44,408 bases of DNA from Oscillospiraceae bacterium (lineage in GTDB: Bacteria; Bacillota; Clostridia; Oscillospirales; Ruminococcaceae). Location of the stretch: positions 1 to 44,408 of the forward strand of contig JAFYOZ010000104.1 in assembly GCA_017547705.1 (NCBI GenBank). Reading direction: 5' to 3'. A program made the translations under genes and the position numbers. The notes beneath the pieces are model-generated. The model had not been told where the DNA came from. It made no database searches and saw only the letters and a list, made by a program, of their open reading frames with translations. Every line of letters begins with the position of its first letter. Position 1 is the first letter of the stretch. This document shows, one piece after another, positions 43,082 to 44,408 of this stretch.

Positions 43082-44408
43082 TTATTTTGCACCTTCTGCC
43101 ATTGCTTTTGCTTTTGCAACAGCATCGTCGATGGTACCGACAAGAAGGAATGCACCTTCCGGAAGGTTATCGTGTTTACCTTCAAGAATCTCGTTGAAGC
43201 CACGGATGGTTTCAGAAAGCGGTACATATTTACCTTCAATACCGGTGAACTGTTCTGCAACATGGAAAGGCTGGGAAAGGAATCTCTCAATCTTTCTTGC
43301 ACGGGAAACAACAAGTTTCTGGTCTTCAGAAAGCTCGTCCATACCGAGAATTGCGATGATATCCTGGAGTTCTTTATATTTCTGAAGAATCTCCTGAACA
43401 GCACGGGCAGTTTTATAATGTTCCTGACCAACAACGTTGGGGTCAAGAATTCTGGAAGTGGAATCCAGCGGGTCAACTGCAGGATAAATACCTTTTTCCG
43501 CAATGGAACGGGAAAGAACGGTAGTTGCATCAAGGTGTGCAAAGGTAGTTGCCGGAGCAGGGTCAGTAAGGTCATCCGCAGGAACATAAACAGCCTGTAC
43601 GGAAGTGATGGAACCCTTGGTAGTAGAAGTAATACGCTCTTGCATCGCACCCATCTCAGTTGCCAAAGTAGGCTGATAACCTACCGCAGATGGCATACGA
43701 CCCAACAATGCGGATACCTCAGAACCTGCCTGAGTGAAACGGAAAATGTTGTCGATGAACAGAAGTACGTCCTGATGTTTTACATCACGGAAGTATTCAG
43801 CAATTGTCAAACCGGTCAATGCAATACGCATTCTTGCGCCCGGTGGCTCATTCATCTGACCGAATACCATGGCAGTTTTGTTAATAACGCCACTTTCAGT
43901 CATTTCTTCCAACAAGTCTTTACCTTCACGAGTACGTTCACCAACGCCTGCGAATACGGAGTAACCACCGTGCTCATAAGCGATGTTACGAATCAATTCC
44001 TGAATCAATACGGTTTTACCTACACCGGCACCACCGAACAAACCGATTTTACCACCCTTTACATATGGGCACAACAAGTCAATTACTTTAATACCGGTTT
44101 CCAAAATTTCTTTGGTAGAACTTTGTTCTGCAAAGTTCGGAGCTTCTCTATGGATTGCCCATCTTTCGCCTTCTACAGCCTCTTTATTGTCGATTGCATC
44201 ACCAACAACGTTGAACAAACGACCCAAAGTAGCATCACCAACAGGTACGGAAATACCAGTACCTTGGTCAATTGCGTCCATACCTCTAACCAAACCATCG
44301 GTAGAAGCCATGGAGATGCATCTTACAGTATTGTTGCCCAAATGTTGAGCAACCTCTAAAGTCAAGTTAACATCACCGTTAACAATTTTAATAGCATTGT
44401 ATATTGCA
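43082..44408 (-). CDS. atpD: F1 ATP synthase beta subunit (5' end lies beyond the window)
   Basis: Walker A (GGAGVGKTV) and the DNIFRF and DDLTDPAPA motifs. The reading frame stays open to the window edge (…[24 protein letters not shown]…). The M listed at 44365 is a TTG Leu codon, not a start. Confidence 0.95.

Follow-up and report, generated by a model that had tools for sequence, protein, structure and literature searches.

Does the atpD gene at the end of this stretch of DNA (the window, 44,408 nucleotides in all and identical with contig C88) come from one organism or from two? The gene encodes the β subunit of the F1-ATPase, and its synonymous codon usage changes abruptly partway along the reading frame. 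The original prediction offered two explanations for this change, either homologous recombination with a foreign atpD or an assembly or binning chimera joining two organisms in a conserved gene. The analysis described here indicates that C88 is very probably an inter-genome metagenome-assembly chimera formed within a conserved gene, and so an artefact rather than a natural mosaic gene. The bin containing it, G000, comprises 1.74 Mb with 42% GC, an estimated completeness of 95.6% and an estimated contamination of 4.4%. The features discussed are collected in Table 1.

Table 1. Positions in the window of the features discussed, with the two conspecific contigs used for comparison
Feature	Position or length	Strand	Description
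Contig C88 (the window)	44,408 nt		Longest of 172 contigs in bin G000
Cthe_2159-domain protein gene	41258..42949	minus	PF14262; native synteny anchor downstream of atpD
atpD, F1-ATPase β subunit	43082-44407	minus	Last ORF, open at the contig end
Native 3' part of atpD	43082..43585	minus	Last 167 codons and stop; CTT-type usage
Junction zone	43586..43615	minus	30 bases, 10 residues; native strain's sequence absent
Foreign 5' part of atpD	43616..44408	minus	264 complete codons (43616-44407); TTG/GTA/CAA-type usage; open at the contig end
Contig L105	72 kb		ENA ERZ28019155; conspecific, uninterrupted 468-aa atpD
Contig L228	64 kb		ENA ERZ28653921; conspecific, uninterrupted 468-aa atpD

Coding content and codon usage of atpD

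The predicted hybrid product of 441 amino acids contains the N-terminal β-barrel, nucleotide-binding and C-terminal domains (PF02874, PF00006 with E = 9.9e-77, and PF22919 in a Pfam search) together with the P-loop GGAGVGKT, and both of its parts are ordinary F1-β sequence, in agreement with the original prediction of a normal β subunit. The synonymous codons divide the gene in two. A formal count gives 18 TTG, 1 TTA, 1 CTT and 1 CTG codon for Leu in the 5' part (44365 down to 43664) and 13 CTT, 2 CTC, 1 CTG and no TTG in the 3' part (43570 down to 43142), numbers identical with those first tallied for both parts, and the difference in TTG versus other Leu codons between the two parts has a Fisher exact p of 8.7e-8. 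With atpD divided at 43616/43615, GTA makes up 13 of 22 Val codons in the 5' part versus 2 of 14 in the 3' part (p = 0.014), and CAA makes up 4 of 9 Gln codons versus 0 of 8 (p = 0.08, alone not significant). The earlier description of GTA as the dominant Val codon in the 5' part, and of CAA appearing there with only CAG used in the 3' part, is thus reproduced by the counts.

The usage in the 3' part is that of the host, as had also been proposed, with CTT accounting for 62%, CTC for 19% and TTG for 5.6% of Leu codons across 1266 long ORFs of the bin. At the genome frequency of 0.056, the binomial probability of at least 18 TTG in 21 Leu codons is 3e-20. No other gene among the 1266 long ORFs has more than about 50% TTG among its Leu codons, and in a genome-wide scan the atpD ORF alone contains 12 TTG in 12 consecutive Leu codons, with no second foreign TTG-rich segment of the same type found in the bin. 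The codon switch inside atpD is therefore real and far beyond chance. The remaining TTG-rich matches of the scan are short frames of 120-220 codons with 9-10 TTG of 12 and putative coding status.

Origins of the two parts and position of the join

Separate searches with the two halves of atpD return different best-matching taxa, as the original prediction implied, with the native genus found for the 3' half and a second family, termed here the donor family, found for the 5' half. The 3' 559 bases are 87-92% identical over their whole length to 13 of 18 same-genus genomes (the others 66-83%), and the 5' 768 bases are 72-76% identical to 15 of the 18, only across a conserved 464 bases (the others 68-78%). 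The TTG-type atpD is absent from all 18 congeneric genomes. The foreign 5' part has 79-85% nucleotide identity to 19 genomes of the family of G031 and G039 (best G039, 85%), for which the public genomes are MAGs labelled 'Peptococcaceae bacterium' (Bacillota), and the 3' part has 71-73% identity to this donor family in a comparison with two of its atpD genes. At the protein level the nearest relatives of the 5' part are the cluster P0002/P0128, at 89-92% identity and with members named 'MAG: Peptococcaceae bacterium', differing by 7 residues in length in the N-terminal barrel. The whole atpD of the donor lineage has 25 TTG and 12 TTA among its 39 Leu codons, so the switch within C88 reflects the donor's own codon dialect, which uses TTG/TTA along the entire gene.

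Maximum likelihood trees calculated separately for the 5' and 3' partitions of atpD place the two parts in different clades. The 5' part of C88 is nested within the donor-family clade (support 99/97), and the 3' part is identical to that of L105 inside the native genus clade (support 98/99).

The donor species itself is found in none of the collections, with the best relatives at 85% nucleotide and 89-92% protein identity. A protein search with the 5' part returns nothing above 90-92% identity, a genome contig scan with the same part gives relatives at 71-80% among the matches listed, and searches of the family and order around G031 reach at best 85% nucleotide identity (G039). An exact 24-mer adjoining the junction has no match in metagenome contigs, and a degenerate pattern for a 13-residue motif matches at least 120 loci, none among the matches listed exceeding 78%. 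The donor was presumably present in the same sample.

The position of the join is defined by comparison with conspecific DNA. The native 3' part is 100% identical to L105 over 504 bases, and C88 as a whole has 4 mismatches to L105 in the 6504 bases below 43586 versus 123 in the 525 bases compared at or above it, with 99.94% identity to the two conspecific contigs on the native side. Within its 30 bases the junction zone departs from L105 and L228 at 4 positions, yet it is identical to the congener G011 and partly common to the donor family; a 20-base run within it, ATCACTTCCGTACAGGCTGT, is identical in the donor-family genome G031, which is a relative and not the donor itself. Clearly donor-type sequence extends down to 43616, and the final base that marks foreign origin is 43586; immediately below this base the donor-family representatives differ from the native sequence at several positions. 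Judged from these alignments, the join lies within 43616-43585, in a block encoding the most conserved stretch of F1-β. The interval originally given for the switch, between 43640-43666 and 43568-43570, contains this position and is narrowed by the comparison.

On the other side of the join the sequence does not revert. The contig end is still foreign, with 53-57% identity to the native sequence in the last 60-90 bases up to 44408, and no second crossover back to native sequence is present in C88, which ends at 44408 with nothing upstream, so that the foreign piece behaves as a short dead-end tip. On the basis of these sequence relationships, bases 1-43585 are assigned to the binned organism, a member of an Oscillospiraceae-labelled genus with a genome of ~1.7 Mb and 42% GC, and the terminal ~0.8 kb (from 43586 or 43616 to 44408) is assigned to an atpD fragment of a bacterium from a different family.

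The native 5' part and intact conspecific genes

A tblastn search of the bin locates a second atpD fragment at C1:23235-24082, at the very end of contig C1, which carries atpA, atpG and atpC followed by codons 1-282 of atpD. This fragment uses 17 CTT, 3 CTC and no TTG codons for Leu, is 90% identical to same-genus genomes and is 76% identical at the nucleotide level to the foreign 5' part of C88 (~24% divergent). Over 6848 bases C1 and L105 share 99.69% identity, and the C1 tail groups with the conspecifics in the tree (support 100/99). The end of C1 is equivalent to window position 43641, so that 25-55 bases separate it from the join and it does not overlap the native part of C88.

The last 153 bases of C1 (C1:23930-24082) have a feature of their own, being 6.5% different from the conspecific contigs compared with 0.16% in the preceding 6.7 kb. 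The differences are all of synonymous type and the sequence resembles that of a congener, which suggests another tip chimera, this one intra-genus, or a strain bubble in atpD.

When the 3' part is used as a query, two full-length AtpD proteins of 468 amino acids are returned, P0136 and P0137, encoded on contigs of two independent ENA assemblies. Against the 3' part of C88 these conspecific proteins reach 100% (L105) and 99.4% (L228) identity; against the C1 fragment the figure is 99.6%, and against the 5' part of C88 it falls to 73%. In both conspecific contigs the atpD gene has the genes of C1 upstream and those of C88 downstream. L105 shows the whole atp operon, the intact atpD, the Cthe_2159-domain gene and two parvulin genes in order, and the shorter flanks examined for L228 agree with this arrangement between atpH and the first parvulin gene. 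Because L105 and L228 join C1-type and C88-type sequence unbroken, C1 and C88 are neighbours in the real genome. No protein combining the two parts of the C88 atpD is found in a collection of 5.8 billion clusters.

The region of the window next to atpD (38108-42949) consists of the Cthe_2159-domain protein gene followed by two tandem parvulin/PrsA-like genes. This block is native and correctly assembled, since the same order occurs in L105 in whole and in L228 as far as the first parvulin gene.

The CTT usage of the native 5' part, both on C1 and on L105, bears on an intrinsic origin of the codon heterogeneity, in which an expression-linked or positional bias within a native gene, or chance, would account for the switch. 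Highly expressed genes can have distinct codon preferences of their own, but the shift in C88 extends to protein affinity, with 73% identity to the conspecific protein for the 5' part and 100% for the 3' part, and chance is excluded by the p value of 3e-20. Expression-linked bias is ruled out by the shift in protein affinity together with the CTT usage of the native 5' part, and the intrinsic explanation in general has a negligible probability.

The content of the bin likewise makes it highly improbable that the organism carries a second atpD paralogue, with two F-type operons, one of them TTG-type, and identical 3' parts collapsed by the assembler. The genome G022, of the same order, does have two atpD matches at separate loci, but the bin holds only one atp operon and the one extra atpD fragment, and among the same-genus genomes none carries a second locus that comes closer to the TTG-type part. 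A 3' third that is 100% identical combined with a 5' part that is 24% divergent would itself need explanation, and the tree places the TTG-type part inside another family.

The gene order of the F-type operon in the native genus is atpG-atpC-atpD, with ε before β, as seen at C1:21863-24082 (L107:5864-8083). The same order is found in L105:4629-7407 and L228 of the conspecifics and in the congeners L008, L009, L010 and L012. The canonical atpG-atpD-atpC order is present in the donor lineage and in 3 of 7 other Bacillota loci, with no ε match in the remaining 4. For an operon so strongly conserved, the order in the native genus is an unusual rearrangement. The window has no atpC 3' of atpD because in this genus atpC is located upstream of atpD.

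A genuine mosaic, in which recombination in this strain replaced the 5' two thirds of atpD with 'Peptococcaceae'-like DNA and C1 derives from a second, non-recombinant strain in the bin, is considered very unlikely. The estimated contamination of 4.4% and the signs of strain mixture in the bin would allow for such a second strain, but the bin also contains the native 5' allele, which stops at the junction, and the two conspecific assemblies, 99.94% identical to C88, are without the mosaic, as are all congeneric genomes (TTG-type atpD in 0/18). The crossover is located in a highly conserved stretch, where exchange would also be easiest; against this, the foreign 5' part departs from the native one by ~24% of nucleotides, a distance far beyond that at which homologous recombination is efficient. 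The unbroken hybrid frame, specifying a normal F1-β (PF02874, PF00006, PF22919), counts in favour of this reading, but foreign sequence continues to the end of the contig without a second crossover into the native atpC, and the donor gene order of G-D-C differs from the native G-C-D. For the junction to be real, ~60% of the essential atpD would have to have been swapped for DNA of another family via a few dozen shared bases in coexistence with a non-recombinant strain, a combination given little credence here. If true, it would represent a homologous replacement of unusually long range within a core bioenergetic gene of a gut or rumen Oscillospiraceae-like species.

Formation of the probable chimera and its significance

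The explanation of C88 as a chimera is supported by the distinct phylogenetic homes of the two parts, by the native 5' part on C1 and by the two non-mosaic conspecific assemblies. Of the two options in the original prediction, the chimera is thus upheld, specifically as an assembly event within one contig and not as a binning error, and recombination is left unsupported. The graph topology and mechanism that we infer begin with the two genomes sharing short near-identical runs of bases in the most conserved block of F1-β, which would be brought together in a de Bruijn or overlap graph. The assembler would then have passed from the host 3' atpD into a short piece of the other organism's genome, probably of low coverage, with the real 5' atpD path of the host being stranded as the dead end of C1. 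The chimeric reading frame of C88 is intact, as it would be in a real recombinant.

Contig ends inside atpD are also seen at G015:C77:1-200, G016:C41:12-256, G018:C109:1-366, G046:C7:1-633 and G047:C16:1-476. The gene is a recurrent break point or tangle in short-read assemblies of these communities, in MAGs of both the native genus and the donor family. Another public atpD, L106 (ENA ERZ27318225 k141_468103, 1720 bases, encoding P0138), has 3' two thirds with ~90-93% nucleotide and 99% protein identity to the native genus and a first ~500 bases with 48-82% identity, and is possibly, from its identity profile, another assembly chimera with a breakpoint near the window equivalent of 43900. P0138/L106 was rejected as a chimera at the same junction since its identity changes ~300 bases further 5', near 43900, indicating a different event.

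Natural mosaic genes such as those for the penicillin-binding proteins of Streptococcus and Neisseria have within-genus donors that are from a few to ~20% divergent, arise by two crossovers and are seen repeatedly in isolates. The C88 atpD is similar in being an in-frame gene composed of segments of different origin with a sharp breakpoint. It differs in having a donor from another family, a single junction, conspecifics without the mosaic and the displaced native segment retained in the bin. Compared with an ordinary AtpD, the 441-amino acid product is a hybrid of the proteins of two species.

Interspecies chimeric contigs are common; in CAMI benchmarks 69% of the near-complete MAGs from MEGAHIT and 20.5% of the MAGs from metaSPAdes contained at least one, and inter-genome chimeric contigs are the target of the misassembly detectors metaMIC and DeepMM (bioRxiv 10.64898/2026.10.15.759294). 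C88 resembles these in joining segments of two species in one contig of a near-complete MAG, in having its join in a conserved gene with the true neighbour left as a separate contig end, and in that the marker-based quality scores (95.6% complete, 4.4% contamination) are blind to the join. Nothing essential separates C88 from the chimeras found by such detectors; it was diagnosed by codon usage and comparative sequence and not by read alignments, and its foreign piece amounts to only ~0.8 kb at the contig tip.

It is almost certain that no living cell carries the mosaic atpD, and the biological weight of the finding is small, its value being practical. AtpD is an often-used marker, and the hybrid protein is unfit for phylogenies, marker-gene sets or screens for horizontal gene transfer, or to represent the AtpD of this organism. 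For curation of the genome, 43586-44408 is to be trimmed and C1 and C88 scaffolded end to end. A within-gene switch of synonymous codons at a contig tip serves as a sensitive, read-free flag for interspecies chimeras that marker-based MAG scores miss.
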